A stretch of 64,000 nt of DNA, taken from contig JBHPIO010000003.1 in assembly GCA_042568575.1 (NCBI GenBank), positions 32,001 through 96,000 on the forward strand, read 5' to 3'. The DNA comes from Patescibacteria group bacterium (GTDB lineage Bacteria; Patescibacteriota; Gracilibacteria; UBA1369; PNNO01). Shown piece after piece: positions 9,581 to 64,000 of the stretch; the stretch's first letter is position 1, and each line of letters opens with the position of its first letter. The notes under the pieces are model-generated. The model was not told where the DNA came from. It saw nothing but the letters and a program-made list of their open reading frames with translations, and searched no databases. The translations under genes were made by a program, and so were the position numbers.

Positions 9581-10036
9581 GATACTAACTATGCCCATTG
9601 CACCTAAAGTAATTACTATTCCAGCAATTGCGAGTCCTATTGCGATGAGCCCCATTGCCTTCCAGTATTTTATTCCGAAAAGGAAAGCCACTAGGCTTCC
9701 TGTCCATCCACCGCTTCCAGGAAGTGGGATTGCTACGAATACTATTAGTAGGATTGGTCCGTACTTTTCTAATGCATCTTTGTGCTTATGCTGTGTTTTT
9801 TCAAACAGTTTAGTAAAGAACTTATTGAAGAACTTAGAATGACGCATTAAAAACCGTGAAACTGGTCCAAGTAGCCAAAGTATAAAGAAGCACGGGATGA
9901 TATTACCTATATATGCCCATAAAAATACAGCTTCTGCCGGCATTCCCATTGCAAATCCAACAGGGATTGATCCGCGCAGTTCTATGATTGGAAGCATTGA
10001 AGAGAAAAAAACTATAATTTCAGGAGGCATGTTCAA
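9575..10036 (-). CDS. Small multidrug export-like membrane protein (COG2426)
   Basis: PIIELRGSIP and FVAIPLPGSGGWTG motifs. Confidence 0.85.
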   Translation of the reverse strand: MNMPPEIIVFFSSMLPIIELRGSIPVGFAMGMPAEAVFLWAYIGNIIPCFFILWLLGPVSRFLMRHSKFFNKFFTKLFEKTQHKHKDALEKYGPILLIVFVAIPLPGSGGWTGSLVAFLFGIKYWKAMGLIAIGLAIAGIVITLGAMGIVSIL

Positions 10037-44977: not shown

Positions 44978-45031
44978 TTGACAGTATTTTGTTTTAGTGC
45001 TTGAATATACGTGGCTTGTATCACTCAACCC

Positions 45032-45802: not shown

Positions 45803-45869
45803 TATTAACAATCCATTGAAAATAAATAGTGAAGTTTTGCCTTTATTAAAGCCAAATTTGTTTTTTTAT

Positions 45870-45906
45870 GGAAAAATTTTGCAATTTTCCTATGTTCGTC
45901 TACTAT
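45870..45906 (+). promoter_or_regulatory. Promoter of paralog 2 with an overlapping imperfect inverted repeat
   Basis: GGAAAAATT-TTGC-AATTTTCC (45870-45890); TTGCAA-N16-TACTAT. Confidence 0.5.
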
Positions 45907-45928
45907 TGTGGTGGATTAACAATTTTTT

Positions 45929-47572: not shown

Positions 47573-47624
47573 GTACTAGGTACTCTCATGCGATTAGCTT
47601 TAACAAGCCATTTCATAGCGAGTA

Positions 47625-48083
47625 CTAAGTACTACTTAAATTTGGCGTAACCATAAACCGCACGCTCCAGTTTCCGTCTTTGTCTTTTTTCAGACAAACA
47701 ATTCCGCCTTGCTGGAATGTGATAACTGGTTTTTCTGCGTTTCCGGTAAGAAGAAGTGAAGAAAGCTTTTGCATGAATGGGAGATGACCAACAAGCATTA
47801 ATCCATCTTGTAATTGGTCGACCCAAATAGTCACATCATCCATTGGCTTTAGGCCTTCTTTTTCTTCAAGTTGGCCTTCTGGGAGGAGATGTTTTGCAAA
47901 GATCTCAGCGGTTTGTTTTGCGCGCAGTTTAACGCTGTGGAACATTGCATCAACTTTTATTCCTTCTTTTGCGGCGTATGAAGCGACTTTTTCACAGTCA
48001 GAACGTCCTTTGTCAGACAAACCTTCTTGCGGATCAACATCTTCCGTAAGTTGATTACCGTGTTGTACTAAATAGATTTTCAT
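47625..48083 (-). CDS. sixA: Phosphohistidine phosphatase SixA
   Basis: MKIYLVQHG, HSVKLRAKQTA and MLVGHLP motifs; start revised to 48083. Confidence 0.85.
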   Translation of the reverse strand: MKIYLVQHGNQLTEDVDPQEGLSDKGRSDCEKVASYAAKEGIKVDAMFHSVKLRAKQTAEIFAKHLLPEGQLEEKEGLKPMDDVTIWVDQLQDGLMLVGHLPFMQKLSSLLLTGNAEKPVITFQQGGIVCLKKDKDGNWSVRFMVTPNLSST

Positions 48084-48215
48084 AGTATGATTATACCCTT
48101 CTTTTTTTAACTTGTAAAAAAGAGTATAATTCGCCCAGACACGAAGCAAAGCTGAGTGTCCTGCTGAGCTAAGGCGAAGCGTAAACGTGAGCGAAGCGAA
48201 CACCTTATTGAAATT

Positions 48216-49865
48216 ATGGAAAAACATTCGTGCAAAAATTGTAGTAGCAGTTTTGAAATCACAAAAGATGATGTGGAGTTTTATGATAAGTTGGCGATTC
48301 CTTCGCCGACCTTTTGTCCTGATTGTCGTTTGCAGCGGCTTTTATCGTGGCGAAATGAGAATACTTACTACAGTCGCACATGCAATAAGTGTGAATGCAA
48401 AGTGATTTCTGTGCATTCGCCTGATCAACCTTATCCGATTTATTGTAATAAGTGTTGGTGGAGTGATGACTTGTATGCGATTGATTACGGACGGGATTTT
48501 GACTTTGATCGTCCTTTCTTTGATCAGTTCATCGAACTTCAAAAAGATGTTCCACAAATTGCAATGATGAATGATAACGGAGTAGCGAGCGAGAATTGTG
48601 AGTATTGTCAGGATTTTGCGTTTGGGAAAAATTGCTATCTAGTGACTGGAAGTTGGAAAATTCGTGATTCTTTTTATAGCAATAATACAAATCATGTTCA
48701 GGACGTTGTTGACTGTTCGTCTGTGAATCTTGAGTCGGAACTTGTTTATGAATCTGTGCATTCGCAGAAGTTATACAATTGTTCTTTTATGAATGTTTCG
48801 ACAAATTGTACTGACTGTCATTTTGGATACGATCTAAAGGGCTGCAAGGATTGTTTTGGTTGTATAGGGCTGCGGCAAAAGCAGTATTTCATTTTTAATG
48901 AAGCGCACACGGAAGAGGAGTATCGTGAAAAAATGTCGAAAATTGATTTAGGATCTTACGAAGGTCTCGAAAAAGTGAAAAAAGATTTTGCAGATTTCAT
49001 TTTGAATTTTCCGCGAAAGCATATTAATCAGATTAACTGTGAAAATTGTATTGGTGATAATTTATATAATTGCAAAAACACAGTTGGTTTTGATTGTTTT
49101 CATGCAGAGGGTTGTAAATATTTCTATAAAGGAGATCATCCGCAGTTTTGCTACGATATTTATCAAAGTGGGAACCCACAGTGGTGCTGCGAGTCTATAA
49201 CTCCTGATGATTCTTTTATGACTGCGTACAGTTTATGGTGTTGGAAGGATAAGCATGTTTTTTATAGTGATAACTGTCATTCGTCTGAACATTTGTTTGG
49301 GTGTATCGGTTTGCGTCGTCAAAAACATTGTATTTTGAATAAAAAATATTCAGAGGAAGAGTATGAAGATTTGAAAGCGCGCATTATTGAACATATGAAA
49401 AAGACTGGAGAATGGGGGCAGTTCTTCCCAGTTGAGAAATCTCCGTTTGGATACAATGAAACGGTTGCTCAGGATTATTTTCCTTTAACTAAAGAGCAAG
49501 CAGTAGAAAAAGGTTACAAATGGAAAGACATCGATCCAAAAAATTATCAAGAATCAACATACAAAATACCAGATGGTATTCACGATGCGCCAGATTCAAT
49601 TGTTGATGAGGTTCTTGCGTGCAGTGATTGTAAGAAAAATTATAAAATTATTCGTGGCGAGCTTGCGTTTTACAGGAAAATGGATTTGCCGATACCTGAA
49701 AAATGCCCTGACTGCCGTCGTTTAGATAGAATGAAACTTCAAACACCGAAAAAGTTGTGGAAAAGGACGTGTCACAAGTGTGGAATTGAAATTCAAACTG
49801 CTTTTGCGCCTGATAGGCCTGAAAATGTGTACTGCGAGCAATGTTATTTAAAGGAAGTTGCTTAA
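48216..49865 (+). CDS. Cys-rich zinc-ribbon/solenoid protein, paralog 3
   Basis: Same conserved blocks. Confidence 0.9.
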   Translation: MEKHSCKNCSSSFEITKDDVEFYDKLAIPSPTFCPDCRLQRLLSWRNENTYYSRTCNKCECKVISVHSPDQPYPIYCNKCWWSDDLYAIDYGRDFDFDRPFFDQFIELQKDVPQIAMMNDNGVASENCEYCQDFAFGKNCYLVTGSWKIRDSFYSNNTNHVQDVVDCSSVNLESELVYESVHSQKLYNCSFMNVSTNCTDCHFGYDLKGCKDCFGCIGLRQKQYFIFNEAHTEEEYREKMSKIDLGSYEGLEKVKKDFADFILNFPRKHINQINCENCIGDNLYNCKNTVGFDCFHAEGCKYFYKGDHPQFCYDIYQSGNPQWCCESITPDDSFMTAYSLWCWKDKHVFYSDNCHSSEHLFGCIGLRRQKHCILNKKYSEEEYEDLKARIIEHMKKTGEWGQFFPVEKSPFGYNETVAQDYFPLTKEQAVEKGYKWKDIDPKNYQESTYKIPDGIHDAPDSIVDEVLACSDCKKNYKIIRGELAFYRKMDLPIPEKCPDCRRLDRMKLQTPKKLWKRTCHKCGIEIQTAFAPDRPENVYCEQCYLKEVA

Positions 49866-49867
49866 GA

Positions 49868-50143
49868 TTATCCCATTTCTTTCCAAAAACATTCTTGGCA
49901 GTAGACAGTATATTTGCTGTCTTGAGAATATGTGGAGATGATGTTTTTTTTGCATTTATCACAAGTTCTTCGGTGTAACTTTCGTTCGTTTCTTTGCAAG
50001 AGTCTTCTCTTTTGCCTGCATTCGGGACAATTTGAAGGGACCGGGAGTTTTTTCTTTGTATAAAACATCTTTTCTTGAGGGATAATCAAGAATTGCCTTT
50101 TGCATTCTGCGCAGGTTATTTTGTCTGATGTTGTTGTATTCAT
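49868..50143 (-). CDS. Stand-alone zinc-ribbon protein (CxxC pairs plus CxxC-x17-CxxC), equivalent to the terminal module of the paralogs
   Basis: CAEC..F.I...EK.FY...LPVPSNCPECRQKRR...RNER.L..RTCDKC...VYCQECF; ATGA overlap with the upstream gene. Confidence 0.85.
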   Translation of the reverse strand: MNTTTSDKITCAECKRQFLIIPQEKMFYTKKKLPVPSNCPECRQKRRLLQRNERKLHRRTCDKCKKNIISTYSQDSKYTVYCQECFWKEMG

Positions 50144-51078
50144 AGTCCGTAGGTTATTACTTCTGGATAAGTTGATTTGTACCATTTGCACCATGTTCCG
50201 TCAGCCTTCATTTCTTCAATAATCTCTTTAACTTTTTTGTGATAGTCTTCTTCGCTATATTGTTCGTTTAAAATTTGATATTTAGCATGATTTATTCCTA
50301 CGCATCCGAAACAATCTTTGCTGTTATAAACAAGATCGCAATAAGTTAGGTCGTTTGAATACCAGCATCCGTAACAGAACATGCAATTAGTTAAATTACC
50401 CCCGCTCATAATTTCATAGCATTGCTCTGACCATCCAAGATGGCTGCAATCAACTAGATCTTTTGAGTCATCGCAGTGGTAAACGTGCATGCAATCGTGT
50501 AATCCTTTTGAGTCATATCCTCCAAAAACCTCTTTTGAGTTATGAAGATTTTCGCCATATGCTTCTTCATTATTTCTTCCGTACATTGCTGTTCGTGGAA
50601 CGCTTGTAAGTAAAGGCTCGAGTTTTTCATAAACTTCTTTGTGGGGCATTTTTTTGAGTTCAGCGAGACGTTTTTCGTATTCCTCTTTTGTATATTGCTC
50701 ATTGAAAATGCAGAATGATTTTTTTCGTAGCCCAACGCATCCGAAGCAGTTTTGTATTCCAATAGAGTGATAGCAGAAGTCGCAGTCGATAGCTTGTTCG
50801 CATTGAACGCAGTAATTACAGTTGTATGATCCAATGCAATCAACGCACTCGTAGCAGAGTTCACATTTTTCGCAGAGTGTGCAATCGACGCAATCCGTAC
50901 AATAAAAAACACGGTGATTATATAAGCAGTCCTCAGATTGATAACTCGCAAAAGTCATGTAGCAGTTGTTGCTTTTTTCTGTGTACTGGCAATATGGGCT
51001 GTTTTCGTTTTGTACACATTGAAGCCCGATGCGTGGTACTTTCTGTCGTAATTGTTCGAATTGTTCTAAGAAGCTCAT
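50140..51078 (-). CDS. Stand-alone Cys-rich core, equivalent to the central region of the paralogs
   Basis: FLEQF..L...VPR, CELCYEC and two CFGC.G.......I.NEQY..E.Y repeats. Confidence 0.88.
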   Translation of the reverse strand: MSFLEQFEQLRQKVPRIGLQCVQNENSPYCQYTEKSNNCYMTFASYQSEDCLYNHRVFYCTDCVDCTLCEKCELCYECVDCIGSYNCNYCVQCEQAIDCDFCYHSIGIQNCFGCVGLRKKSFCIFNEQYTKEEYEKRLAELKKMPHKEVYEKLEPLLTSVPRTAMYGRNNEEAYGENLHNSKEVFGGYDSKGLHDCMHVYHCDDSKDLVDCSHLGWSEQCYEIMSGGNLTNCMFCYGCWYSNDLTYCDLVYNSKDCFGCVGINHAKYQILNEQYSEEDYHKKVKEIIEEMKADGTWCKWYKSTYPEVITYGL

Positions 51079-51201
51079 TTGAGTAATTATGGTGATAGTT
51101 TCATCGATTTGATTATAGCTGCTGCCTCATCGTCTGGCTAGCAGTTGTGAACGCAGCAAAATGATGTAAAATTGAATTGAAATAATAATTAAATCTGATT
51201 A

Positions 51202-52884
51202 ATGCAGAAAAATTGCAAAAACTGTGGTAGCCAGTTTACGATTGAAGATGAAGATTTAAAGTTCTACGACAAAATTTCACCGACTTTTGATGGAAAGAAG
51301 TTTCAAATTCCACCACCTACTCATTGTTCTGATTGCAGGCAACAAAGGAGGCTCGCTTGGCGTAACGAGAGAACTCTTTATAGACGTAAGTGTGATGCAA
51401 CTGGGAAGAATGTTGTCTCGGTTTTTTCATCTGACAAACCTCTGAAAGTTTATAATAACGACTATTGGTATTCTGATAAGTGGGATCCACTTGAATACGG
51501 CATGGATTTTGATTTTAATCGGCCATTTTTTGAGCAGTTTCATGAGCTTATTGAGCAAGTTCCACAAGTTGCTCGTTCAGCGGTACGTAATCAGAATTCC
51601 GATTACGTGAATCAATGTGGATGGTGCAAAAATTGCTATCTCATTTTTGAAGCGGACTATAATGAAAACTGCATGTACGGAAATAACGTTTATGACTCCA
51701 GAAGCTCCATGGATTTTTTACATATTTTTGGTTGTGAACTTTGTTATGAGTGTGTGAATTGTACAAACTGTTATAATTTGAAATTTAGTCAGAATTGTCA
51801 GAACTGTTCCGATTCATATTTCTTAAAAAATTGTATAGGTTGCAAAAATTGTTTTGGATCAATTAATTTACGAAACAAAGAATTTTATTTCTTAAATGAA
51901 AAATGTACAAAAGAGGAATATGAACAGCGATTAAAATCGATTTCATTAGGGGAATTTTCGACTTTAAATAAATTAAAGGAAAAATTTACCGAACATACAT
52001 CGGCATTTCCAAATAAATATATGGAAGGAACACAGAATGAAGATTCAACAGGTGATTATTTGAACAATACGCAGCGATGTAAAGATTGTTATGATCTTGT
52101 TAACTGTCAAGACTGCAAATATGTTTTCAACTCACGAAATGTGAAAAATGTTTATGATATGACTGTTTTTGGATCTAAACATGGCGTTGAATTTTGTTAT
52201 GAAAACCATGAGATAGGTGATGGGGTGCGTAATGTGTGTTTTTCTGATCAAGCTTGGAGCGGTATATACGATATTTACTATTCCAAATTGTGCATGAACA
52301 ATAGCCATGATTTATTTGGATGCGTAGGTCTTAAACATGCGAAGTATTGTATCCTTAATAAGCAGTATTCTGAGGAGGAATATGAAAAACTTGCCTCAAA
52401 AATAGTTGAACACATGATTAAAACAGGTGAGTGGGGAGAATTTTTACCTGCTTCAATGTCTCCATTTGCATATAATGAAACAATTGCGCAGGATTATTAT
52501 CCGCTTAAAAAAGAAGAGGCTTTGCAGAAAGGATACAGGTGGAAGGAGCCTGATCAAAAAGAATATCAGCCTAAAACATATGTAATTCCAGATGATATTA
52601 AAGAAGTTCCGGATTCAATAATGAATGAAATTTTGGCGTGCAGTGATTGTGGAAAAAATTACAAAATTATTCAACAGGAGTATGATTTTTATCAAAAATT
52701 CAATCTCCCAATCTCAAGAAAATGTCCAGATTGCAGACACAAAGATAGAATGAAATTAAGAAATCTACGAAAGTTGCATAATGGAAATTGCGATAAATGT
52801 AATGCGGATATTCAAACTACCTATTCACCAGATCATTCGGAAAAGGTATACTGTGAACGTTGCTACCTCGAATCGGTAGTTTAA
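51202..52884 (+). CDS. Cys-rich zinc-ribbon/solenoid protein, paralog 4
   Basis: Same conserved blocks, with an SPTFDGKKFQI insert in the first zinc ribbon. Confidence 0.9.
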   Translation: MQKNCKNCGSQFTIEDEDLKFYDKISPTFDGKKFQIPPPTHCSDCRQQRRLAWRNERTLYRRKCDATGKNVVSVFSSDKPLKVYNNDYWYSDKWDPLEYGMDFDFNRPFFEQFHELIEQVPQVARSAVRNQNSDYVNQCGWCKNCYLIFEADYNENCMYGNNVYDSRSSMDFLHIFGCELCYECVNCTNCYNLKFSQNCQNCSDSYFLKNCIGCKNCFGSINLRNKEFYFLNEKCTKEEYEQRLKSISLGEFSTLNKLKEKFTEHTSAFPNKYMEGTQNEDSTGDYLNNTQRCKDCYDLVNCQDCKYVFNSRNVKNVYDMTVFGSKHGVEFCYENHEIGDGVRNVCFSDQAWSGIYDIYYSKLCMNNSHDLFGCVGLKHAKYCILNKQYSEEEYEKLASKIVEHMIKTGEWGEFLPASMSPFAYNETIAQDYYPLKKEEALQKGYRWKEPDQKEYQPKTYVIPDDIKEVPDSIMNEILACSDCGKNYKIIQQEYDFYQKFNLPISRKCPDCRHKDRMKLRNLRKLHNGNCDKCNADIQTTYSPDHSEKVYCERCYLESVV

Positions 52885-52894
52885 GGCTTTTTAT

Positions 52895-54559
52895 ATGGAA
52901 AAAATCGTTTCCACAAAAAATTGTAAAAATTGTACGAAAGAATTTTCCGTTACCGATAGAGATCAAAACTTTTACAAAAAAATGGCTGTGCCTGAGCCTA
53001 CGTTTTGCCCTGCATGCAGAATGCAGCGGCGGATGGCTTTTCGAAATGAAAGAAATTTGTATAAACGAAAATGTGATTTTTCCGGGAGAGACATAATTTC
53101 AGTCTATCCACCAACAAGTAAATACAAAATATACGATCAAAAAATTTGGTGGAAAGACGATTGGGATCCAATGGAGTATGGTCGCGAGTTTGATTTCGAT
53201 AGACCGTTTTTTGAGCAGTTTAATGATCTTTTGTTGGAAGTTCCACGACAAAGTCTGCAGCTTGTGAATTGTGAAAATAGTGATTATGGAAATGATTGTG
53301 ATGGATCTAAGAATTGCTACTTATGTTTTAACTCAGGAACAGTTGAAGATAGTTATTATTGTACGACTTATGGAAGGAACAGTAAGAATTGTATGGATAT
53401 GTTTTGGAGTATTACGTGCGAGCTTTGTTATGAATGTTCAAAAGTTACACAAGGTTATCATTCATTTTGGTGTTTTAATTGTACAAATGTAACCGATTGT
53501 TATTTTTGCGATGATTGTAGAAGTTGTGAGTATTGTTTTGGATGCGTTGGACTTCGTCATAAGAAATATCATATTTATAATAAAAAAGTTTCAAAAGAAG
53601 AGTACGAAAATTTTATCAAAAACTTTCACTTCACTTATGATGAAATTGAAAAAGCAAAAGTAAAATTAAAAGAATTGCGCTTAACTGTCCCTTATAAAAA
53701 CTTACAAATTGTAAGTAGTGAAGACTCGGAAGGGGATTTTCTCGAAGGATGTAAAAACTGCACTGAATGTTTTGATGTAATCATGTCGGCTGATTCAAAA
53801 TATGTTTGGGATGGATTAATAGATGGTGGGTATGATTGTTTTAATACAGGTGTAGATACGAAATTCGTTTATGAATGTTTAGTAGCTTATTACGCAAACA
53901 ATATTAAATTCGCCAATATTTCTTTTTATTGTTCAGACGTACAGTATTCTGATTCTGTCTATAATAGTGAGCATTTGTTTGGTTGCGTTGGTTTGAGACA
54001 TAAAAAATACTGCATTTTAAATAAACAATACACAAAGGAAGAGTATGAAAAATTGCTTCCAAAAATTATTGAACACATGAAAGAAACTGGTGAGTATGGG
54101 GAGTTTTTTCCAGCTTCATTAAGTTCATTTGGATACAATGACACAATGGCCCAAGAATATTTTCCACTAACAAAAAAAGAAACTGATAAGCAGGGATTCA
54201 ATTGGAATGATTATGTGCAACCAAAGCCAGAAGGTATTAAAACAATTAAAGCGAAGGATTTGCCGGAAAGTATTAGCGATATTACGGACGATGTTTTGAA
54301 TTGGGTAATTGAATGCGAAAAAGACGGAAAACCATTTAAAATTATTCCGCAGGAGCTTAAGTTTTATAAAAAAGAAGGATTGTCGTTGCCGCATTTGTGC
54401 CCTGATTGTAGGCACTATGAAAGAAAGTGGAAAGTTAATCCTCGAAAATTGTATGACAGAACATGTGGCAAATGTGGAGAGGATATGAAAACTACTTTTG
54501 CACCGGATAGGCCGGAGAAGGTATACTGTGAATCCTGTTATCTTAAAGAAATCGTTTAA
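52895..54559 (+). CDS. Cys-rich zinc-ribbon/solenoid protein, paralog 5
   Basis: Same conserved blocks. Confidence 0.9.
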   Translation: MEKIVSTKNCKNCTKEFSVTDRDQNFYKKMAVPEPTFCPACRMQRRMAFRNERNLYKRKCDFSGRDIISVYPPTSKYKIYDQKIWWKDDWDPMEYGREFDFDRPFFEQFNDLLLEVPRQSLQLVNCENSDYGNDCDGSKNCYLCFNSGTVEDSYYCTTYGRNSKNCMDMFWSITCELCYECSKVTQGYHSFWCFNCTNVTDCYFCDDCRSCEYCFGCVGLRHKKYHIYNKKVSKEEYENFIKNFHFTYDEIEKAKVKLKELRLTVPYKNLQIVSSEDSEGDFLEGCKNCTECFDVIMSADSKYVWDGLIDGGYDCFNTGVDTKFVYECLVAYYANNIKFANISFYCSDVQYSDSVYNSEHLFGCVGLRHKKYCILNKQYTKEEYEKLLPKIIEHMKETGEYGEFFPASLSSFGYNDTMAQEYFPLTKKETDKQGFNWNDYVQPKPEGIKTIKAKDLPESISDITDDVLNWVIECEKDGKPFKIIPQELKFYKKEGLSLPHLCPDCRHYERKWKVNPRKLYDRTCGKCGEDMKTTFAPDRPEKVYCESCYLKEIV

Positions 54560-56218
54560 ATGAGTGAAAAAGTCATTGGGACAAAGCCATGTTCAAAGTG
54601 CGGGGATGAATTTACGATTACGAATCAAGATCGAACGTTTTATGCAAAACTGGATGTTCCGGATCCAACTCATTGTCCGGTTTGTCGAAATAAACGCAGA
54701 ATGATGTGGCGGAACGATCGGACTTTTTATAAACGGAAATGTGATATGACGGGAAAGTCGATGATTTCAATTTATCCTAAAGATGCGCCTTTTCCGGTTT
54801 ATCATCCGGAGCAGTGGTATAGCGATAAGTGGGATCCGATGGATTACGGTCAGGATTTTGATTTTGATCGACCTTTTTTCGAACAATTCAAAGAGCTGCT
54901 TTTAAAAGTTCCGCATTTGGGGATTGATATCGTTAATTGTGAGAATAGTTTTTATTGTAATTATTGCGGTGATGACAAGAATTGCTATCTTGATATTGCA
55001 GGTGAGGGAAATGAAGACTGCTACTTTAATCTTTTTACAAAATTTTCGAAAGATACAGCTGACTGCACTTTTGTTTATAACTGCGAGCTCTGTTATGAGT
55101 CGATAAATTGCTACAATTGCCACAATGTTCGCTATTCAATGTATTTGGACAACTGTAACGATTGTGCGTTTTGTTATGACATGAAAGGCTGCAGCGATTG
55201 TCTATTTTCGTATAATTTGAGGCACAAAAAATATCATATTTTCAATCAGGAATATTCAAAAGAGGATTATGAAAAGAAATTGGCCGAGCTTCAGTTTGGT
55301 TCGTTTCAGGCGCTTCAGGTGGAGATAAAAATGTGGCAAGATATGATGAAGCAGGCGATTCATCGTGATATGTACAATTTGAATTCGGAAAATTGTACCG
55401 GAAATAATATTAAAAATTCGAAAAACTGCCACGATGCTTATAACGTCGTAAATTGTGAAGATTCTAAGTTTTTGTATGATGTTTTGGATGCGAAAGACTG
55501 CTACGATATGAATTATTCTTTGTATAAACCTGAGGTTGCCTATGACATTATTAGTACCTTAAGCATGCGGTTTTCTGCGTTTTGTATGGCGAGTCATTAT
55601 TGCAATAATTCTTTTTATTGTGACACATGTAATAACTCATCTAATCTTTTTGGATGCACAGCTTTGAATCAGAAAAAATACTGCATTTTGAATAAACAAT
55701 ATACAAAAGAGGAGTACGAAAAAATGGTTGAGAAGATAAAAGAGCATATGAAAAAAACAGGAGAGTGGGGAGAGTTTTTCCCGGTTGAGATTTCGCCTTA
55801 TGGATATAATGAAACAGTTGCAAATGAGTATTGTCCGCTAACAAAAGAGGAAGCAGGGAAGAAGGGATATCCTTGGAAAAACCTTGAAATGGCTGGATAT
55901 AAACTGCAAAAATACGAAATTCCAGATTATATTGATGATGTTTCTGATGGAATTACAGATGAAGTTCTTGCATGCTCAAGTTGTATGAAAAATTTTAAAA
56001 TAATTACTCAGGAGCTTGGATTTTATAGAAAAATGAAGCTTCCTATTTCGCGAAAATGTCCCGATTGCAGACATCGAGATAGGATGGAAAGGCGTCATCC
56101 GCGTAATTTATGGATGCGTCAGTGTGTGCGGTGTAATAAAGAAATTCAAACTCCTTATACTCCGAAAAGATCGGAAAAGATTTATTGTGAGGAGTGTTAT
56201 TTGAAGACAGTTTATTAA
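54560..56218 (+). CDS. Cys-rich zinc-ribbon/solenoid protein, paralog 6
   Basis: Same conserved blocks; start abuts the paralog 5 stop (TAAATG). Confidence 0.9.
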   Translation: MSEKVIGTKPCSKCGDEFTITNQDRTFYAKLDVPDPTHCPVCRNKRRMMWRNDRTFYKRKCDMTGKSMISIYPKDAPFPVYHPEQWYSDKWDPMDYGQDFDFDRPFFEQFKELLLKVPHLGIDIVNCENSFYCNYCGDDKNCYLDIAGEGNEDCYFNLFTKFSKDTADCTFVYNCELCYESINCYNCHNVRYSMYLDNCNDCAFCYDMKGCSDCLFSYNLRHKKYHIFNQEYSKEDYEKKLAELQFGSFQALQVEIKMWQDMMKQAIHRDMYNLNSENCTGNNIKNSKNCHDAYNVVNCEDSKFLYDVLDAKDCYDMNYSLYKPEVAYDIISTLSMRFSAFCMASHYCNNSFYCDTCNNSSNLFGCTALNQKKYCILNKQYTKEEYEKMVEKIKEHMKKTGEWGEFFPVEISPYGYNETVANEYCPLTKEEAGKKGYPWKNLEMAGYKLQKYEIPDYIDDVSDGITDEVLACSSCMKNFKIITQELGFYRKMKLPISRKCPDCRHRDRMERRHPRNLWMRQCVRCNKEIQTPYTPKRSEKIYCEECYLKTVY

Positions 56219-56279
56219 AAAGCAAACTTGACTTTTGTCTCAAAATATAGTTAAATTAAACATCCCGTATCAATTTTTT

Positions 56280-57050
56280 ATGGCTATCTATTCAAAATTA
56301 AGAAAACTACTAACGGATGCCGGCTTAACAGAAGCCGAGATCACTGTGTACTCTGAACTTTTGAAAAATCCTGCGCAAACAAAGTGGGAGATTGTTGAGC
56401 GTACAGGCTTAAATAGAAATGCAGTTTATAGAGCCTTTGAAACTCTTGAGACACACATGATGGTTGAGTCGACTGATGAGGGATTTAAAGCATTGTCGTT
56501 GAAGGTTTTGGTTAGTAAGCTTCATAATTCGGGGCGAAAACTTGGAAAACTTGCTAATAAAATTAAGCATGTTGCGCCATTTTTAAACTCATCGCATGAA
56601 ACTATTGAAGAATTTGAAACTTTTTATACTCCAGAGCAAATAGCAGAGCCATATATTTTTATGGCGGAGCATAAATACGGAACGAATTTGGATTTTGGTG
56701 ATTTTGAAAACTTTATTCCGACAATTGGAGGCATTCCGATTGCTTGTAAATTTAGAAAAGAGAGAGCGAGGAAGTCTGGTCACCATGCAATTTGTACAAC
56801 AAATGGAAAATATACAGGATATTTTTGTACTAATGATGCAAAGCAACGTTTTAAAACTCAAATCGATCGATTGAATATAGATTTTGGAGGAACTTTTGTG
56901 ATTTTTTCGGATTCGAGTGATTATGTTTTGTTTAATCATTTTGCAGACCCGAACAATCAGTGTTCTGTTCTTGTAAAATCAAAGCCAGTTGCAGATATTC
57001 AGCGTGCTCAGTTTGATATGTTTTCTCAAAAACTTGAGAACTTGCAGTAG
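56280..57050 (+). CDS. TrmB-like HTH regulator
   Basis: LTDAGLTEAEITVY...EIVERTGLNRNAVYRAFETL; paralogous to 45032; start revised to MAIYS. Confidence 0.8.
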   Translation: MAIYSKLRKLLTDAGLTEAEITVYSELLKNPAQTKWEIVERTGLNRNAVYRAFETLETHMMVESTDEGFKALSLKVLVSKLHNSGRKLGKLANKIKHVAPFLNSSHETIEEFETFYTPEQIAEPYIFMAEHKYGTNLDFGDFENFIPTIGGIPIACKFRKERARKSGHHAICTTNGKYTGYFCTNDAKQRFKTQIDRLNIDFGGTFVIFSDSSDYVLFNHFADPNNQCSVLVKSKPVADIQRAQFDMFSQKLENLQ

Positions 57051-57086
57051 GTTTTTTGGCTTTTAAGAGCGGTTTTGAAATTTTAT

Positions 57087-57125
57087 GCGTCAAATTTTGA
57101 CGCTTTTTTTGTTCCGTTTTATTTT
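57087..57125 (+). promoter_or_regulatory. Promoter of paralog 7 with a perfect palindrome over the -35 box
   Basis: GCGTCAAA-T-TTTGACGC (57087-57103); TTGACG-N17-TATTTT. Confidence 0.6.
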
Positions 57126-57155
57126 GTGATCTGTCTAATTAAATAATCAAAAGTT

Positions 57156-58796
57156 ATGCTTAATAAATCATGCAAAAATTGTGGAAACAATTTTGAAATC
57201 ACAGATAATGATCTTCAATTTTATAAAAAAATAGATGTAACGGAACCAACTTTCTGTCCGACGTGTCGTTTGCAAAGAAGGCTAACATTTAGGAATGAGA
57301 GAAATCTCTTTAAGAGAAAATGTGACATGTGCAGCAGAGAAATTTTTACTTTCTACGATCAAAATGTTGTGTTTCCGGTTTACTGTACTGAGTGCTGGTG
57401 GGGCGATAAATGGGATTCACTTGAGTATGGAAGAGAGTTTGATTTTAAACGCCCCTTCTTTCCTCAATTTCAGGAATTAATGAATGAAGTTCCAAAAATA
57501 GGAATGCTTTCATTTCAAAATGAGAATTCTCCGTACAATTCGCTACTAGCTTTTAGCAAAAATACTTATATGAGTCCGGGAAGTTACTGTATGGAGGATT
57601 CATATTATGTTCGAAAGAGTCAGTATAGTAAGGATTGTTTGAACAGCCTTTTTCTTGATCATTGCGAGCTAGTTTCTAACAGTGTGAATTCGCAAAATTG
57701 TTACAATTGTGATCATATTTTGAATTGTAGAAACTGTTTTGATTGTATGTATCTTGCAGATTCCTTCTCGTGCAAGAATTGCTTTATGTGTAGCGGAATT
57801 TCGAATAAAGAATTCTATTATAAAAACCAAAGATATTCGGAAGGTGATTATCGAGCTATCGTAAAAGACCAATTGGAAAGAGATCCAAAAGATTTAATGG
57901 ATGAGTTTTTAGAATTTAATACGACTGTTCCAAAAAGATTTCAAAATCAGATTAATTGCGAGAATTCTTCAGGAGATTATATTCAGAATTCTAGTAATGC
58001 GCGTGAATGTTATGACTGTTTTGATGTCGAAGATTCAAAGTATTTATTTGAATGTGTGAATGTGAAGGATTCGATGGATGTGAGTGATCATGATAAAGAA
58101 GTTGAGCTTTGTTATGAACTTTGTACGGGAGGTGAAAAGAGTTACAAGCATATTCTTTCGGTGGCTTCTATTGCATGTCCAAACACGAGCTATCTTTATT
58201 CTTGTTATTATCTTTCTGACAGCTTTGGGTGTGACGGGTTTCACTCAAAACAAAAGAACTGTATTTTGAACAGAAAGTATTCGGAGACTGATTACAATTT
58301 GCTAAAAGGTAAGATAATTGAACATATGAAGGCATTAGGGGAGTATGGGGAGTTTTTTCCTAGTTCAATTTCGCCTTTTCCGTACAATCACACAATTGCA
58401 CAGGATTATTTTCCTCTTACAAAAGAGTTTGCTTTAGAAAAGGGATATAAATGGAAAGATGAAGATGAGTCTCTTTATAAGCCGGCTACTTTTCAGCTTC
58501 CCGATGATATTAATACAGTTCCAAATTCAGTTACTAAGGAAATTCTTGAATGTGAAGATTGTTCAAAAAATTACAAAATAATTTCTCAGGAGTTGAATTT
58601 ATGTAAAAGGACGCACAGATCTCTTTCAAAGAAATGCCCTGATTGTAGGCATAGGCTGCTTTTGTCTTTAAAGAATCCAAGGAAGCTTAACGATCGTGAG
58701 TGTGATAGATGCGGAGATCCAATTCAAACAACTTACACTGAAAATAGGCCAGAAAAGGCTTATTGTGAGAAGTGTTATCTCCAGCAAATAGCATAA
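57156..58796 (+). CDS. Cys-rich zinc-ribbon/solenoid protein, paralog 7 (closest to paralog 1)
   Basis: Same blocks; shares ENSPYNSLLA.SKNTYMSPGSY with paralog 1. Confidence 0.9.
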   Translation: MLNKSCKNCGNNFEITDNDLQFYKKIDVTEPTFCPTCRLQRRLTFRNERNLFKRKCDMCSREIFTFYDQNVVFPVYCTECWWGDKWDSLEYGREFDFKRPFFPQFQELMNEVPKIGMLSFQNENSPYNSLLAFSKNTYMSPGSYCMEDSYYVRKSQYSKDCLNSLFLDHCELVSNSVNSQNCYNCDHILNCRNCFDCMYLADSFSCKNCFMCSGISNKEFYYKNQRYSEGDYRAIVKDQLERDPKDLMDEFLEFNTTVPKRFQNQINCENSSGDYIQNSSNARECYDCFDVEDSKYLFECVNVKDSMDVSDHDKEVELCYELCTGGEKSYKHILSVASIACPNTSYLYSCYYLSDSFGCDGFHSKQKNCILNRKYSETDYNLLKGKIIEHMKALGEYGEFFPSSISPFPYNHTIAQDYFPLTKEFALEKGYKWKDEDESLYKPATFQLPDDINTVPNSVTKEILECEDCSKNYKIISQELNLCKRTHRSLSKKCPDCRHRLLLSLKNPRKLNDRECDRCGDPIQTTYTENRPEKAYCEKCYLQQIA

Positions 58797-58800
58797 CTGT

Positions 58801-58891
58801 TTGACAAAGTGGCGAATTTAACTCTAAAATCGAGCTGTTGATTTGTTCGATTGCAATTTTTGGAATACGGACAAATTACGATCATTGATAA
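58801..58891 (+). promoter_or_regulatory. Sigma70 promoter and boxA-like motif ahead of the putative ncRNA
   Basis: TTGACA(58801)-N18-TAAAAT(58825); GATCATTGATAA at 58880-58891. Confidence 0.55.
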
Positions 58892-59440
58892 CCCGCTTAT
58901 GCCTAATTAATTTCAGTTGATGGGTTCTGTTTGTGCAAAATGTTTTTATTTTGTTTAGGCAAAGCCCATCTACTAAATAGATGGAAACAGGATCGAAGGG
59001 TTCGCCTGTGTGAATGACCAGAAAGCCGTTGTAAAGTAGACATTTATTGGCTTCTCCATTCGTTTACGTAGGGAACCCTTCTACTTTTTTTCGAAAGGTG
59101 GCTTTGCACTCCGCCGTTTGGCTTCCTCCTGAGTGCTAAGTTGCCAGGTTGCAGGCGTGAGTATTGCGTGGTTTACCCTCCATTAATTGCAATGGAAAAC
59201 CGCTCACGCCTGCGACCGCTATTTTTTTGTTTCCAGGATTAGAGATGTCACTTGTTATACGATGGCTACCCAACCCATCACGCCCATCTTTGCCCTGTCT
59301 TCGCCTAGTCCCAAACTGCTAAGCGTTTAAGATAGATTACTTTATCCACGCATTGACCCAAGGGCAGATAACAGTCACATCTCAGCGCAGGCACGGCTAA
59401 GACCGTGCCTGCGCAACTTTTCTTCTTAGACATAAGCGGG
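58892..59440 (+). ncRNA. Putative large (~550 nt) highly structured non-coding RNA, family unrecognised
   Basis: No ORF of 60 aa or more in 745 bp; 15-bp closing stem and at least seven nested helices, with many pairs that are G-U only on the + strand. Confidence 0.6.
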
Positions 59441-59541
59441 CCTTTCTTATTCTCCAGAGAGGCCAGTGTTATTTGGATGATGTTGTGTAGGCACCAATGG
59501 TGCTGTAAAATTCATTACTGATCTATTAGTAACGATTTTTT

Positions 59542-59961
59542 ATGAAAAAATTTCTTATAATCCTGTTGGTTTTAGTTATTGGTGCGGGTTTGGCGTATTT
59601 TTTGTTAATGAATAATAGCCCTCAGGAACCTGCGATAGAGGATCCTCAGTATCTTTCTTACTCGGAATCGCTTTATTCCGATCTTATTGGAAATAATAAG
59701 CCTTTTACACTTTTCTTTTATGACAGTAACGACGAGGCTTTGAAAACATTGAGGCAAAGTTTAAAAGATGACATAGAGAATTATCCGATTGGTTCAAAAA
59801 TAATTGAAGTTGATTTTGGTGTGGATACAGAAATTCAAAATCAATATGAGGTTACTGAGGCGGGTGTGTTTATTTCAATTAATTCTAAAGGTAAGGTTAT
59901 TGAGACTTTTAGTTCTGTAGATGTTGAGGAGATAAAAACGGCTGTATCTTCGTCTTTATAA
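59542..59961 (+). CDS. Membrane-anchored thioredoxin-fold protein lacking CxxC
   Basis: N-terminal TM; PFTLFFYDSNDEAL at the usual FxAxWCxxC position; IIEVDF and YEVT...FISINSKG. Confidence 0.6.
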   Translation: MKKFLIILLVLVIGAGLAYFLLMNNSPQEPAIEDPQYLSYSESLYSDLIGNNKPFTLFFYDSNDEALKTLRQSLKDDIENYPIGSKIIEVDFGVDTEIQNQYEVTEAGVFISINSKGKVIETFSSVDVEEIKTAVSSSL

Positions 59962-60032
59962 GTTATCTTTAGTTGACGTAATGTGCCTTAAGTGTTAGCA
60001 TACGCTCCAATTTAAAATTAACCAGTTTAAAC

Positions 60033-60365
60033 ATGTTTGATAGAACTGAAAGAGATCCTGATACAGGTGTTGAAGTTGAAGCCGAAACTGAAACTGAAAC
60101 TGAAGTATCTGGAGAAGAAGGAGAACCTACGGGAGTAGATGCAATAAAAGCAAGATTTGCTAAATCCGCGGCAGCTGCAGAACCTGAAGTGGTTGCAGAA
60201 CCTGAACAGGATCCACTTACTCGAAAAGAAGCTTTAGCAAATGCAGGTGCAAAAACTTCTCTTGGGGAGCCTTGGGCGCAAAAAGTAAGAAAAGGAATGC
60301 AACAAGCAGTTCAAGATCCACGATCAAGTAGAAAGGGAAAACCTGAAGATGGAGAAGAGGGATAG
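60033..60365 (+). CDS. Acidic hypothetical protein
   Basis: 110-aa ORF; promoter TTGACG-N17-TAGCAT (59973-60001). Confidence 0.65.
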   Translation: MFDRTERDPDTGVEVEAETETETEVSGEEGEPTGVDAIKARFAKSAAAAEPEVVAEPEQDPLTRKEALANAGAKTSLGEPWAQKVRKGMQQAVQDPRSSRKGKPEDGEEG

Positions 60366-60398
60366 TCTAAAAAAAACCACGCAGAAGCGTGATTTCAA

Positions 60399-60473
60399 TG
60401 GTAGTCCCAAGGGGAATCGAACCCCTGTTTCATGGATGAAAACCATGTGTCCTAACCACTAGACGATGGGACC
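60399..60473 (-). tRNA. tRNA-Glu (TTC)
   Basis: GGTCCCATCGTCTAGTGGTTAGGAC-A-CATGG-TTTTCAT-CCATG-AAAC-AGGGGTTCGATTCCCCT-TGGGACTACCA; encoded CCA. Confidence 0.97.
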
Positions 60474-60545
60474 AAATTTGCGAAACTTATTTTCAAACTT
60501 GCAAAAAAGATTATATAGAAACCAATTCTAAAGTCAAACAAATCA

Positions 60546-60881
60546 CTAAGGCGAGATATATTTTGAGCCTTCTGGTTTTTCCATATCATACATCTTATCG
60601 CTTTCTTCAAGCATAAACATCGATTTTGCCTTTAATACCTTAATACGCAGTTCTTTATTAATGTTTTCCAGTTCTTCATTTTGAAGTATTAGTTGCGAAT
60701 GAACGTATCCTTTTTGCGCGGAGTTACTAGTATTCAACAAAAATACGATACTCAACACGACAGTTATTAAAACCAGGCCAAATAATAAAGCGACGATCGT
60801 CTTACGTACTTCCTGTGAAAGGGGAGTACGCTTGCGTATGAGTTTGCTCCCGAACCTCTTATTAAATGTTTCATCAACCAT
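60546..60881 (-). CDS. Second FtsL-like bitopic protein
   Basis: TM followed by SAQKGY...NEELENINKEL...L.AKSM...M.KP, paralleling 11349-11705. Confidence 0.55.
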   Translation of the reverse strand: MVDETFNKRFGSKLIRKRTPLSQEVRKTIVALLFGLVLITVVLSIVFLLNTSNSAQKGYVHSQLILQNEELENINKELRIKVLKAKSMFMLEESDKMYDMEKPEGSKYISP

Positions 60882-60883
60882 TT

Positions 60884-61879
60884 TTAAACTTCATTTATAA
60901 TTTCATATTCCACCCAGATAACTCCAGTTCCAGGATGTGCAATCGTCTCAAAAGCGCTGCGTGATAAATCAATAACGCGACCAGTAATAAACGGTCCACG
61001 GTCATTTATCCTCACAGTAACTTCTGCACCATTTGCAAGATTAGTTACTTTCACCACAGTGTTAAAAGGTAGAGTCCTGTGTGCTGCGGTTAGTTCCGCT
61101 GCCCTGTAAGGCTCGCCGGAAGATGTTCCATTTCCTTCAAGTGAATCGTGATAGTACGATCCTTTTCCAAACATTGCTCCTTCTTTGCTCTTCATGTATC
61201 TGTAAACAAGTTCTGCAAACTTGCTTCGAGTCATTTCTCGGCCTGGATTAACGGTTCCATTCATCATCACATATATAATCTGTCGTAATTTTGCTTCTTG
61301 AATATATGGAGCGAACCATTCATTCATATTTACATCAACATACGGATTTTCTGTTACTTCTGGAAGAACAACGTCGTCGTCTTCCATAACCATTTTAAAA
61401 CTTTCTACCCTGTTTACAGTAATAATAGGCCTGAAGGTTCCATCTTCATATCCTTGAACAACACCTTCTTCAACTCCCTTTTTAAGATAAGGGAAATACC
61501 ATTGGCTTTTATATATGTCGGAAAAGCTAACAAGATCTAAATTTGTTGAATAATTACTCCCTCCTAGTCTATTTTGTTCAACATAATCGTCAGTAATTGT
61601 TCCATTTGCCTCTAAAATTATTTTTAGCGCCTCAATTCTATTAATTAGATTTCCTGGCTTAAAACTTCCGTCGTTATAACCTTCCAAAATTCCTTTTTCT
61701 TTTAGATATTTGAGTGCAACGTACTCGGGATGGCCAACATCAACATCCGAAAAAACATGAGTATCAACCGGTTCTTCTACTGCTTCTTCAGATTGCGCGC
61801 TAGCAATAAAAGGAACACTAAAGATAAGGAATGCTCCCAGTGTTGTTATTAAAAGTTTGTGACTGCTTCGCATCTTCAT
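60884..61879 (-). CDS. SLH-domain protein fused to an RlpA-family (DPBB) lytic transglycosylase domain
   Basis: GYNDGSFKP and GYEDGTFRP SLH repeats; TAAHRTLPFNTVVKVTN...VRINDRGPF...IDLS. Confidence 0.9.
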   Translation of the reverse strand: MKMRSSHKLLITTLGAFLIFSVPFIASAQSEEAVEEPVDTHVFSDVDVGHPEYVALKYLKEKGILEGYNDGSFKPGNLINRIEALKIILEANGTITDDYVEQNRLGGSNYSTNLDLVSFSDIYKSQWYFPYLKKGVEEGVVQGYEDGTFRPIITVNRVESFKMVMEDDDVVLPEVTENPYVDVNMNEWFAPYIQEAKLRQIIYVMMNGTVNPGREMTRSKFAELVYRYMKSKEGAMFGKGSYYHDSLEGNGTSSGEPYRAAELTAAHRTLPFNTVVKVTNLANGAEVTVRINDRGPFITGRVIDLSRSAFETIAHPGTGVIWVEYEIINEV

Positions 61880-61882
61880 AGT

Positions 61883-62359
61883 TTATGAAGGGTTTTGAAG
61901 AATTATAGTTACTTGTCTGTGATCACCATCTCCAATACTTTCAGTTACAATGTCTTTAAAGTCTTGTTCAGTTAAATACATATGAACAACACGTCTAAAA
62001 TAAGGTGACATTGGTGGCAGAACTTGAGTTTTCTTAGTCTTGCGAGCCATATCAACTTTTCGCTGTGCGAGATTAATTACGTTATCTTCCTGTCTCTTTC
62101 TGTAATTATCAACATCAAGAAGAATATTGAAATCTTCTTTTGTCTGCTTCCATGCGATAACTTTAAGCAGATGCTGAAGAGCTTGTATATTTTCACCGTG
62201 AAATCCAATTAACATGCTTGGGTCTTCAGTTTCGATATTGATCCGATACAAGTCGTTATCACCACTTTTTTCTTTGTCGATATGTATCTTATCAAACGGA
62301 GCCTCGATTTTAATAAGAAGAGTTTCGAGGATTTCCTTGAGGGATTTATCTATCTCCAT
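61883..62359 (-). CDS. jag: Jag/KhpB (EloR)-like KH plus R3H RNA-binding protein
   Basis: LIGFHGENIQALQ, DVDNYR, PMSPYFRRVVH and ESIGDG motifs; follows yidC. Confidence 0.88.
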   Translation of the reverse strand: MEIDKSLKEILETLLIKIEAPFDKIHIDKEKSGDNDLYRINIETEDPSMLIGFHGENIQALQHLLKVIAWKQTKEDFNILLDVDNYRKRQEDNVINLAQRKVDMARKTKKTQVLPPMSPYFRRVVHMYLTEQDFKDIVTESIGDGDHRQVTIILQNPS

Positions 62360-62420
62360 TTTAGAGGGTATATTTAAGGATATTATTAACGTAAATAGTG
62401 CGCTTTGTAATTATAGCAAA

Positions 62421-63689
62421 TTATGAATCTTTTTCTATGACTCTAACTGTGCTTTTGTTCTTATTGCCTGGACTCACACGTTTGTTTACATAAAGTTGTT
62501 GTCCTATACCGAAGATTGTTGAAGTTCCCCAATATAGACCCACACCTGAAGGTACTGATGCGGTGAAAAGCGCTATCATAATTGGCATTATATATACCAT
62601 CATTTGAGTTGCCATTTCCATTTCTGCTCCCTTTTTTGGCTTTCCATCTTTCTTTTTCTCGATTTGCTTCTTATTCTGCTGTTGCTGTTGGTTCTTTTTA
62701 CGTGCTGTAGCAAGCTTCATTTGGAAGAATTGTAGTCCTGCTACGATTAGTGGCAATACGATGATATTTCGCTCCGTTAGATTAAGTAATCCGAAGAAGT
62801 TTGTATTAATTAGAGATAAATCAAATCCTTGTTGGAACGAGTAAAGCAAGTGAACGTTATCCGGATTTAATCCTGTTTGAATTACGTAGAAGAGCGCGAT
62901 AAGTATTGGCAGCTGAATAACAAGTGGCAAACAACTTCCAAAAGGATTTACCTTGTACTCTTTATATAATGCAAATGTCTCTTGAGCTATTTTTTGTTGA
63001 TTGTTCTTATATTTTTCCTGCAATTTTTTAATTCGTGGTTGAAGATCCTGTAACTTTCTTTGCGATTCAAGACCACGCTGCGCAGGGATGAATAATAAAA
63101 GTCTTAAAAGAATAGTAAGCAGGATAATAGCTAAACCAAGATTATAACCCGGCATTATACTTACTATATATATAAGTGCGTTATAGATAGGTTGATAGAA
63201 GAATGTTCCCCATGTGTATCCCCACCATGATTGACCTGAAACTGTGAATTCGTTACTTTCAAAAGTAGCCATTTCACCTTCGATTTCTGTTGTAATACCT
63301 ATTTTATATCTACCTATCGTATTAAAGAGAGCATGGTTCCAAGAGCGATATTCAATTACTGATTCTTCTAGCGGAGGAATTTCGGTGTCTATTACTGTTG
63401 AGCAGTCAATATTTGGAGTTGCTGTAAGTTGGTTGAAATTACCATTTTGATATAAGAAGACATCAAGTGGTTCTTCTGGACATTCACTTGGAAGAATAAT
63501 TGGTGAATTTGTGTTGTTTTTGATCTTAACAGAAACAAGTTGATTTTGTTTGTATTCATTATTTAAAGTTGCTATTCCAATATCTCCTCCAGCGAGATTG
63601 GCATCTATTTCTGTGTTTCCGCTACATCCTCTGAAAATAACGAGAAGTGCAACAAAGAATATTGCGAATGTGATTAATTGTCGTTTCAT
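62421..63689 (-). CDS. yidC: Membrane protein insertase YidC
   Basis: GLAIILLT, LQPRIK, NPFGSCLPLVIQLPI and PSGVGLYW motifs. Confidence 0.95.
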   Translation of the reverse strand: MKRQLITFAIFFVALLVIFRGCSGNTEIDANLAGGDIGIATLNNEYKQNQLVSVKIKNNTNSPIILPSECPEEPLDVFLYQNGNFNQLTATPNIDCSTVIDTEIPPLEESVIEYRSWNHALFNTIGRYKIGITTEIEGEMATFESNEFTVSGQSWWGYTWGTFFYQPIYNALIYIVSIMPGYNLGLAIILLTILLRLLLFIPAQRGLESQRKLQDLQPRIKKLQEKYKNNQQKIAQETFALYKEYKVNPFGSCLPLVIQLPILIALFYVIQTGLNPDNVHLLYSFQQGFDLSLINTNFFGLLNLTERNIIVLPLIVAGLQFFQMKLATARKKNQQQQQNKKQIEKKKDGKPKKGAEMEMATQMMVYIMPIMIALFTASVPSGVGLYWGTSTIFGIGQQLYVNKRVSPGNKNKSTVRVIEKDS

Positions 63690-63693
63690 TGAT

Positions 63694-63999
63694 TTAAGGT
63701 GCTAAAGAAGTGAAAATATCGTTAGTATTCTGAACGATTCTATCATAATTGCAAGATAAGATTTGCTTATGCGGGATGAGCACTATGTCGTAAAATTGCT
63801 CTGTCTCCGGCTGACTTGGTAAGTTGTTTCTGATTGCCTCGTAAATTTGTCTGCGTTTTTTATTGCGAACTGTGGCGAGTTTTTCGAATTTCCTACTAAG
63901 CACTAGCGACCATCTGTGATACTTACACTTATTTGGAAGGTATTTCACAATAAACAACCCAACCTTCTTATTTTCTCCTTTATTAAGAACTTTTTGGAC
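63694..63999 (-). CDS. rnpA: Ribonuclease P protein component (5' end outside the window)
   Basis: SRKFEKLATVRNKKRRQIYE (RNR-like motif); upstream of yidC; frame open to the window edge. Confidence 0.85.
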   Translation of the reverse strand, partial: VQKVLNKGENKKVGLFIVKYLPNKCKYHRWSLVLSRKFEKLATVRNKKRRQIYEAIRNNLPSQPETEQFYDIVLIPHKQILSCNYDRIVQNTNDIFTSLAP

Positions 64000-64000
64000 A

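Follow-up and report, generated by a model that had tools for sequence, protein, structure and literature searches.

A candidate orphan large structured RNA downstream of a Cys-rich gene array in a Patescibacteria genome

Bacterial RNAs that are both large and structured, and whose function is unknown, are few. ROOL and GOLLD are large (~580-800 nt) and ornate bacterial non-coding RNAs (ncRNAs) of unknown function and patchy distribution, with joined ends and many helices, often found next to tRNAs and in prophages; ROOL, with a mean length of 581 nt, has six junctions and three pseudoknots (PMC5737381). ROOL and GOLLD form RNA-only cages, and the solved OLE, ROOL and GOLLD structures are described as unexpected RNA-only assemblies (PMC12286853). 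OLE works with protein partners, and PMC3413148 mentions OAP and extremophilic anaerobes. We report here on a structured unit of comparable size lying in a 64,000-nt stretch of DNA from a Patescibacteria group bacterium (GCA_042568575.1, contig JBHPIO010000003.1; C23:32001-96000, hereafter the window, whose numbering is used for all coordinates given without a contig). The assembly totals 1,203,139 bases in 31 contigs, is 81.8% complete and has a GC content of 0.38. The unit sits between the last gene of an array coding for Cys-rich proteins (57156-58796, +) and a gene for a 139-aa protein (59542-59961, +). We consider it a credible and well-founded orphan large-ncRNA candidate, which belongs to no known family and is not an established new one either. 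The reading we favour, to which we give about even weight, is that of a structured RNA gene of the + strand, private to its lineage and transcribed on its own.

Comparison with described RNA families

The candidate resembles ROOL and GOLLD by its size (a core of 549 nt) and its ornate multi-junction fold, and OLE in that the latter is also an ornate and highly structured ncRNA, of ~600 nt. The differences are nevertheless numerous. Covariation over many sequences is what defines ROOL and GOLLD, whereas the candidate has a single representative and matches no covariance model, that of OLE included; three junctions are predicted in it against six in ROOL, pseudoknots being beyond the reach of the folding tool; its helices are much longer and more regular; and it has neither a prophage context nor a linked tRNA. 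The nearby tRNA-Glu, which lies on the opposite strand behind a promoter of its own, is still present in a genome of the same genus (G001) that lacks the RNA. The initial annotation had placed the RNA in the size class of OLE, ROOL and GOLLD: this is right for the size, and does not extend to membership of these families.

The comparison with Rfam 15 also covers, through its models, the 224 motifs of PMC5737381. At the gathering score only tRNA is found in the whole window, so that no family reaches threshold at the candidate, as the initial annotation had expected. With permissive filters and E <= 10, a scan of 901 nt (58700-59600) gave seven sub-threshold matches, none of them to RNase P, tmRNA, SRP (signal recognition particle) RNA, an intron, OLE, ROOL or GOLLD (the last three being RF01071, RF03087 and RF01998), and none to a riboswitch, T-box or leader family. 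The best one, to GcvB (RF00022) at 59421-59543 (+), scores 21.6 bits for a threshold of 42 (E = 0.021) and is taken as chance. The layout of this stretch, i.e. a hairpin, a G/U-rich linker, a hairpin and a U-tailed hairpin, is that of a small RNA. Besides, the genome has its RNase P RNA elsewhere, at C23:119243-119620 (168.8 bits), and its tmRNA at C26:47449-47884 (113.7 bits), ARAGORN finding no tmRNA in the window; both identities are thus rejected for the candidate, in keeping with the earlier statement that it bears no RNase P, tmRNA, SRP or intron signature. We found in the literature no description of a large structured RNA from Patescibacteria or, more broadly, from the Candidate Phyla Radiation.

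Two other comparisons are functional or architectural rather than of kinship. RNAIII of Staphylococcus aureus is a genus-restricted regulatory RNA of ~514 nt, with many autonomous hairpins, long-range helices closing its domains and C-rich accessible loops. It offers a functional analogy for a lineage-private multi-hairpin RNA acting in trans; the Rfam scan gave no match to it. In the precursors of rRNA and other stable RNAs, a processing stalk is made by a long-range helix pairing the sequences that flank the structured core. The candidate likewise shows a strong promoter followed by a long-range helix round its core, and RNase III is encoded in the genome (C3:28592-29251; its 258.7 bits exceed the curated cut-off). 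The boxA that was proposed on the sequence is not supported: scored against the Escherichia coli consensus, the sole nearby match (58796-58807) has 3 mismatches, and the total of 122 matches in the window is at the level of chance (105.6 +/- 10.2).

A discrete + strand unit with an exceptionally stable predicted fold

The region is a discrete, non-coding, promoter-to-terminator unit of the + strand, for which folding models give an exceptionally stable and modular structure. Folded by ViennaRNA, which cannot predict pseudoknots, 58880-59450 (+) has a minimum free energy (MFE) of -224.7 kcal/mol, against -148.4 +/- 6.2 for 100 dinucleotide shuffles, none of which folds as well (z = -12.4). This value was calibrated on RNAs of the same genome, with a single script and 20 shuffles each: z is then -10.3 for the candidate, -3.8 for RNase P RNA and also for tmRNA, and -0.3 to -2.2 for three 550-nt segments of 16S/23S rRNA. 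For its composition, the region is therefore predicted to be far more stable than the genuine structured RNAs of this genome. The MFE structure comprises 188 base pairs (85 G-C, 82 A-U and 21 G-U) and three multistem junctions, as counted in its dot-bracket notation. It reproduces all the helices that had been read by eye, namely the closing stem, hairpin 58915-58974, the multiloop and its arms, domain 59242-59383 and hairpin 59385-59414.

The ends of the predicted structure are held by a long-range closing helix, the core of which pairs 58892-58906 with 59426-59440 (58892-58901/59431-59440 plus 58903-58906/59426-59429). In the repeat search it appears as an inverted repeat of 15 nt, complementary at 14 of the 15 positions (93%), with arms 519 nt apart. 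Inside it, domain 1 (58910-58978) is a long hairpin of 4+3+8+6+8 bp with a UUUU loop (hairpin 58915-58974). Domain 2 (58982-59235) is a four-way junction closed by 58982-58992/59225-59235, with arms at 58995-59081, 59097-59145 and 59147-59217, the last on a 16-bp base; its internal loop UUCCUCCU, at 59123-59130, is fully unpaired. Domain 3 (59242-59383) is a less regular three-way junction with C-rich loops, the inner part of which differs between the MFE and centroid structures. It is followed by a terminator-like 12-bp hairpin with 10 G-C pairs and a U-rich tail (T1, 59385-59414), by the 3' strand of the core of the closing helix, and by a second terminator-like hairpin of 9 bp (T2, 59439-59464). 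A third hairpin (T3, 59505-59543), A/U-rich and ending in six U, abuts the ATG (59542) of the 139-aa gene; it may be terminator-like, or a structure over the start of this gene. All these elements are on the + strand.

Folding a longer segment, 58797-59545, gives -272.5 kcal/mol and z = -10.6 (20 shuffles). This extended fold adds a 5' leader hairpin of 11+3+3 bp (58839-58878) and lengthens the closing helix to 58881-58906/59426-59481 by pairing 58881-58892 with 59468-59481, T2 then forming a three-way junction with the helix. Conversely, cutting the RNA at 59424 affects none of the internal domains and leaves just one element unpaired, the 5' strand of this clamp; the domains, which fold identically in the cut RNA and in the extended one, are thus autonomous. 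The unpaired bases are poor in G (U 86, C 55, A 54, G 24).

The strand is suggested by the pairs themselves. Seven 1x1 mismatches occur in the + fold, 3 of which are C·A, against 21 G-U pairs. A DNA palindrome that decays would give both at a 1:1 ratio, since a C·A here would be a G-U on the opposite strand; by our own arithmetic, 21:3 departs from this expectation with p ~3e-4 (two-sided binomial). The pairing thus appears to have been maintained in a + strand transcript. Besides, the - strand folds worse (-207.7, z = -7.7, against z = -12.4). As G-U pairs outnumber C·A mismatches and the - strand is the less stable, the model assigns the RNA to the + strand, as first proposed from the G-U pairs.

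The absence of a long open reading frame (ORF), also noticed at first sight, is clear: the longest one codes for 52 aa with translation table 11, and for 57 aa with table 25, where TGA is read as Gly. Compared by tblastx with the source genome, the region matches itself only, apart from sub-threshold matches within the region and one in contig C31 (E 0.15-0.55). These short ORFs and the outcome of tblastx argue against a protein-coding gene or pseudogene. None of five start-codon ORFs of the region occurs in a collection of 15 billion proteins. A 79-aa stop-to-stop frame has a single match among 1.84 billion representatives (E 1.9e-4, 34% identity, in 4 stretches of a 720-aa protein), which we regard as repetitive or chance. 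The GC content rises to 0.47-0.51 at 59000-59500, as compared with ~0.30-0.37 in the adjacent upstream genes and 0.38 genome-wide.

Promoters and terminators were looked for on both strands of 44001-64000. A sigma-70-type promoter-like site, TTGACA-18-TAAAAT, identical to consensus at 11 of 12 positions, lies 55 nt upstream, at 58801-58830 (+), which bears out the promoter proposed initially; from its position the RNA would start near 58837. Only three sites of this quality exist in the 20 kb. Another one, TTGACT-16-TATAAT at 60510-60537 (-), is directly upstream of tRNA-Glu and serves as an internal control for the promoter of a stable RNA. The third, at 48090-48118 (-), falls inside the 5' part of a 200-aa ORF (47625-48227, -), which suggests that this ORF might really start at an internal Met near 48083, possibly on a leaderless mRNA. 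T1 and T2 are listed first among the 18 terminator-like hairpins of the 20 kb. A weaker promoter-like site, TTGTGT-17-TAAAAT, is present at 59483-59511, ahead of the 139-aa gene.

On these bases, the RNA might be made and might act as follows. Transcription would begin at ~58837 from the sigma-70-type promoter and end after 59414, 59464 or 59541, yielding the leader hairpin and four self-contained domains, with or without the 3' end. Upon read-through past 59440, the helix 58881-58906/59426-59481 would clamp both ends, and this clamp, together with arms of 27-35 bp, would make a very stable RNA. Such a stalk is of the kind that RNase III cuts when stable RNAs are released. Once mature, the core might serve in trans as a platform for binding or as a scaffold, by way of its exposed loops, poor in G and rich in C/U. 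As the closest relatives do not have the RNA, this role would be accessory rather than housekeeping.

Distribution and genomic setting

Homologs were searched with species representatives and single-sequence models, in samples of the order, class and phylum that overlap. BLAST detects the RNA in none of 40 relatives and none of 204 other genomes of the order; in 400 genomes of the phylum, nine have matches of 19-34 nt only (E 0.001-0.01 per genome), read as chance. Two covariance models were built, R1 on domain 2 (58982-59235) and R2 on the 3' part (59236-59440). R1 finds nothing in 150 genomes each of the order, the class and the phylum, and, with laxer filters, nothing in 39 relatives except one 14.1-bit match (E 0.14); R2 finds nothing in 150 genomes of the order, nor in 150 of the class except one 12.2-bit match (E 0.46). 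Phage and plasmid records give no match, nor do viral contigs probed with three exact 20-21-mers. An 18-mer is found at 21 loci of genome contigs and a 19-mer at 3 loci of metagenome contigs, none of which extends past 40 nt by blastn; with R1 these loci score 14.2 bits at most, and we read them as chance. Metagenome contigs probed with the 139-aa protein gave 597 pattern matches, none of them confirmed. The homologs that the initial annotation called for were thus not found in any collection searched, a statement weaker than that of a demonstrated absence.

The relatives are more informative about the site itself. In G001 (97% complete; C8) the stretch from jag to tRNA-Glu shares 84% DNA identity with that of the source genome; past tRNA-Glu and the homolog of a neighbouring gene for a 110-aa protein, a Cys-rich gene comes after just 150 nt, with neither the RNA nor the 139-aa gene present. 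In a genome of another genus of the same family (G012; C48), the 139-aa homolog stands 28 nt after a Cys-rich gene with no RNA between. The RNA is thus an insertion or deletion polymorphism in a conserved neighbourhood. By tblastn, no Cys-rich gene accompanies 8 other loci with 139-aa homologs.

In the source genome the RNA is single copy and matches no other ORF-free gap. The initial annotation had kept in mind a miniature inverted-repeat transposable element (MITE); a 14/15 inverted repeat is indeed present, but the sequence is in one copy, with no target-site duplication, i.e. no flanking direct repeat among the repeats listed, so that a MITE or another non-autonomous transposon was set aside. 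A template or variable repeat of a diversity-generating retroelement, a tandem array and a TIGR- or CRISPR-like array were likewise rejected, no direct or tandem repeats being found. The immediate neighbours include no integrase, transposase or phage-family gene (7 proteins against Pfam, 4 against PHROGs and NCBIfam); of the four proteins compared with PHROGs, three have no match and one has a weak match of unknown function.

The product of the 139-aa gene has a membrane anchor at its N-terminus. Downstream of this gene come a gene for an acidic protein of 110 aa and tRNA-Glu (60399-60473, -; ARAGORN), ~960 nt from the structured unit, then further away an SLH/DPBB lytic-transglycosylase-like gene, a gene with KH and R3H domains (Pfam), and putative yidC and rnpA genes, as read from their ORF sequences. 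ARAGORN counts no more than 25 tRNA/tmRNA genes in the assembly, which is 82% complete.

Upstream, the Cys-rich array (43337-58796) consists of ~550-aa paralogs, with 18 tblastn matches in the source genome. Compared with Pfam, these paralogs have only a weak treble-clef match; 50140-51078 / 49868-50194 (-) looks like a shorter or split one, and two genes of TrmB-type helix-turn-helix proteins (45011-45802 and 56235-57050) are interspersed in the array. It had been suggested that these proteins, called zinc-ribbon, could be partners of the RNA. This suggestion gained no support: the Cys-rich family is present in 29 of the 40 relatives and the RNA in none, and nine array loci from relatives have no analogous structured non-coding gap. 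The sole strongly folding gap among them (L065 8138-8350) reads as a tRNA plus a terminator. Adjacency is thus the only link between the RNA and the Cys-rich proteins, and co-occurrence speaks against an obligate partnership.

Two roles were considered for the UUCCUCCU loop and discarded. As an anti-Shine-Dalgarno (anti-SD) decoy, it would have little to work on: SD-like 4-mers, at -20 to -4, precede only 100 of 1331 crudely called starts, and because such motifs are rare in this genome an anti-SD action is unlikely. As an antisense, the loop region 59119-59131 has a 12-nt perfect complement at C6:9874, over a GGAGG-ATG start (~9860-9876), with a duplex of -34.7 kcal/mol; considering all start regions, our own arithmetic puts this at the level of chance.

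Alternative explanations and significance

Several observations weigh against a functional RNA gene and explain our restraint. No homolog was found, hence covariation brings no support. Since the RNA is absent at the syntenic site of G001, a function, if there is one, can be done without or is very recent. For a conserved functional RNA the helices are of unusual length and regularity, with not a single GNRA or UNCG hairpin tetraloop, and such features suit a young or selfish element as well as a functional RNA. Promoter-like sites are overall at chance in the 20 kb (66 against 67.6 +/- 8.8), so that only the quality and the placement of the 58801 site carry weight. Finally, efficient termination at T1 would leave the 3' strand of the closing helix untranscribed.

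The three terminator-like hairpins in series, the last of which (59505-59543) covers the start codon region of the 139-aa gene, might point to quite another organization, in which the RNA is a giant structured 5' leader, i.e. a cis attenuator of this gene, the 58801 promoter driving the gene and the hairpins gating read-through. The RNA and the gene are indeed on the same strand and are missing together in G001. We nevertheless hold such a leader to be unlikely: the one homolog compared in this respect, that of G012, does without it at 28 nt from a Cys-rich gene, ~700 nt with four autonomous hyperstable domains far exceed known attenuators, the Rfam scan gives no riboswitch, T-box or leader family, and the weak promoter-like site 59483-59511 could serve the 139-aa gene alone. 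Slightly less probable still, in our opinion, is that the region is the cargo or the remnant of a mobile or foreign element without host function, recently acquired, e.g. a satellite, a plasmid fragment, a single-strand origin or an element with 15-nt terminal inverted repeats. This would account for the presence/absence polymorphism within the genus, the orphan distribution, a GC content ~10 points above the flanks, the 14/15 inverted repeat at the ends and another GC-rich structured island, likewise orphan, at a distance of 18 kb on the same contig. However the sequence is single copy, with no flanking direct repeat among those listed, immediate neighbours of which none is an integrase, transposase or phage-family gene, and no match to phages, plasmids or viral contigs; moreover G-U pairs exceed C·A mismatches by 21:3, which speaks for pairing kept in a + transcript rather than for a DNA palindrome, and a consensus promoter is correctly placed ahead.

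An accidental or neutral run of hairpins, produced for example by local inverted duplications and transcribed or not, is the more doubtful as z = -12.4 is equalled by none of 100 shuffles, and as the nested long-range helices are hardly fortuitous: our arithmetic gives ~0.01 closing helices of 14/15 expected by chance in 700 nt. The strand asymmetry of G-U pairs, the raised GC, the strong promoter and the terminators correctly placed also speak against it, as does the economy of a 1.2-Mb genome in which non-coding DNA is scarce (110 ORF-free gaps of at least 250 nt). In its favour are the lack of conservation wherever we searched, the great regularity of the helices, and the strongly negative z of several other ORF-free gaps in a rough scan with 8 shuffles each; altogether we think it improbable. 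As for a very divergent member of ROOL, GOLLD, OLE or another known large family, for which the Rfam models would be too narrow, it appears very improbable: the size (549 nt for the core, against a ROOL mean of 581 nt in PMC5737381), the ornate multi-junction fold and the sporadic distribution are compatible with it, but these families give no Rfam match even at E <= 10 with permissive filters, three junctions are predicted where ROOL has six plus three pseudoknots, the context is not that of a prophage, and the nearby tRNA, which has the opposite orientation and its own promoter, persists in G001 although the RNA is missing there.

The candidate RNA is not the only structured region of this genome. 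The second island just mentioned (C23:109230-110040, outside the window) is ORF-free with a GC content of 0.47; 895 nt fold to -339.8, with z = -6.3 (20 shuffles), and a promoter-like site TTGACA-17-CAATAT is found just upstream. It has no Rfam match at gathering score, no BLAST match in the 40 relatives, and no similarity to the candidate RNA. The rough scan with 8 shuffles gave strongly negative z for five gaps as well, C30:36479-36997, C3:1198-1856, C27:64478-65167, C12:65481-66125 and C12:69974-70601. The C30 gap (z = -8.4, +) seems to contain a short ORF, rich in GC and preceded by a GGAGG site, with strong hairpins on either side, and a stretch of 84 nt is 80% identical between the two C12 gaps. 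The genome may thus hold more than one private structured RNA.

One may go further and imagine that the candidate and at least one more region, C23:109230-110040, are private large ornate RNAs, fast-evolving or horizontally acquired, expressed from consensus promoters, and forming self-assembling or protein-scaffolding particles comparable but unrelated to ROOL, GOLLD and OLE. This is a possibility that we put forward with much reserve. To our knowledge, these three RNAs were all discovered through covariation among many homologs, a method blind to RNAs of a single lineage.

The interest of the present candidate lies in a predicted stability far above the values computed for RNase P RNA, tmRNA and rRNA segments in this genome, and in a promoter as near to consensus as that of tRNA-Glu. 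Should it not be expressed, it would illustrate how misleading the fold signal of a single sequence can be. If it is expressed, it would offer a compact and easily synthesised target for probing or cryo-electron microscopy, and an example of orphan large RNAs in uncultured bacteria with small genomes. Were private ornate RNAs of this sort to be real, large structured RNAs would be far more diverse than surveys based on families and dependent on covariation show.

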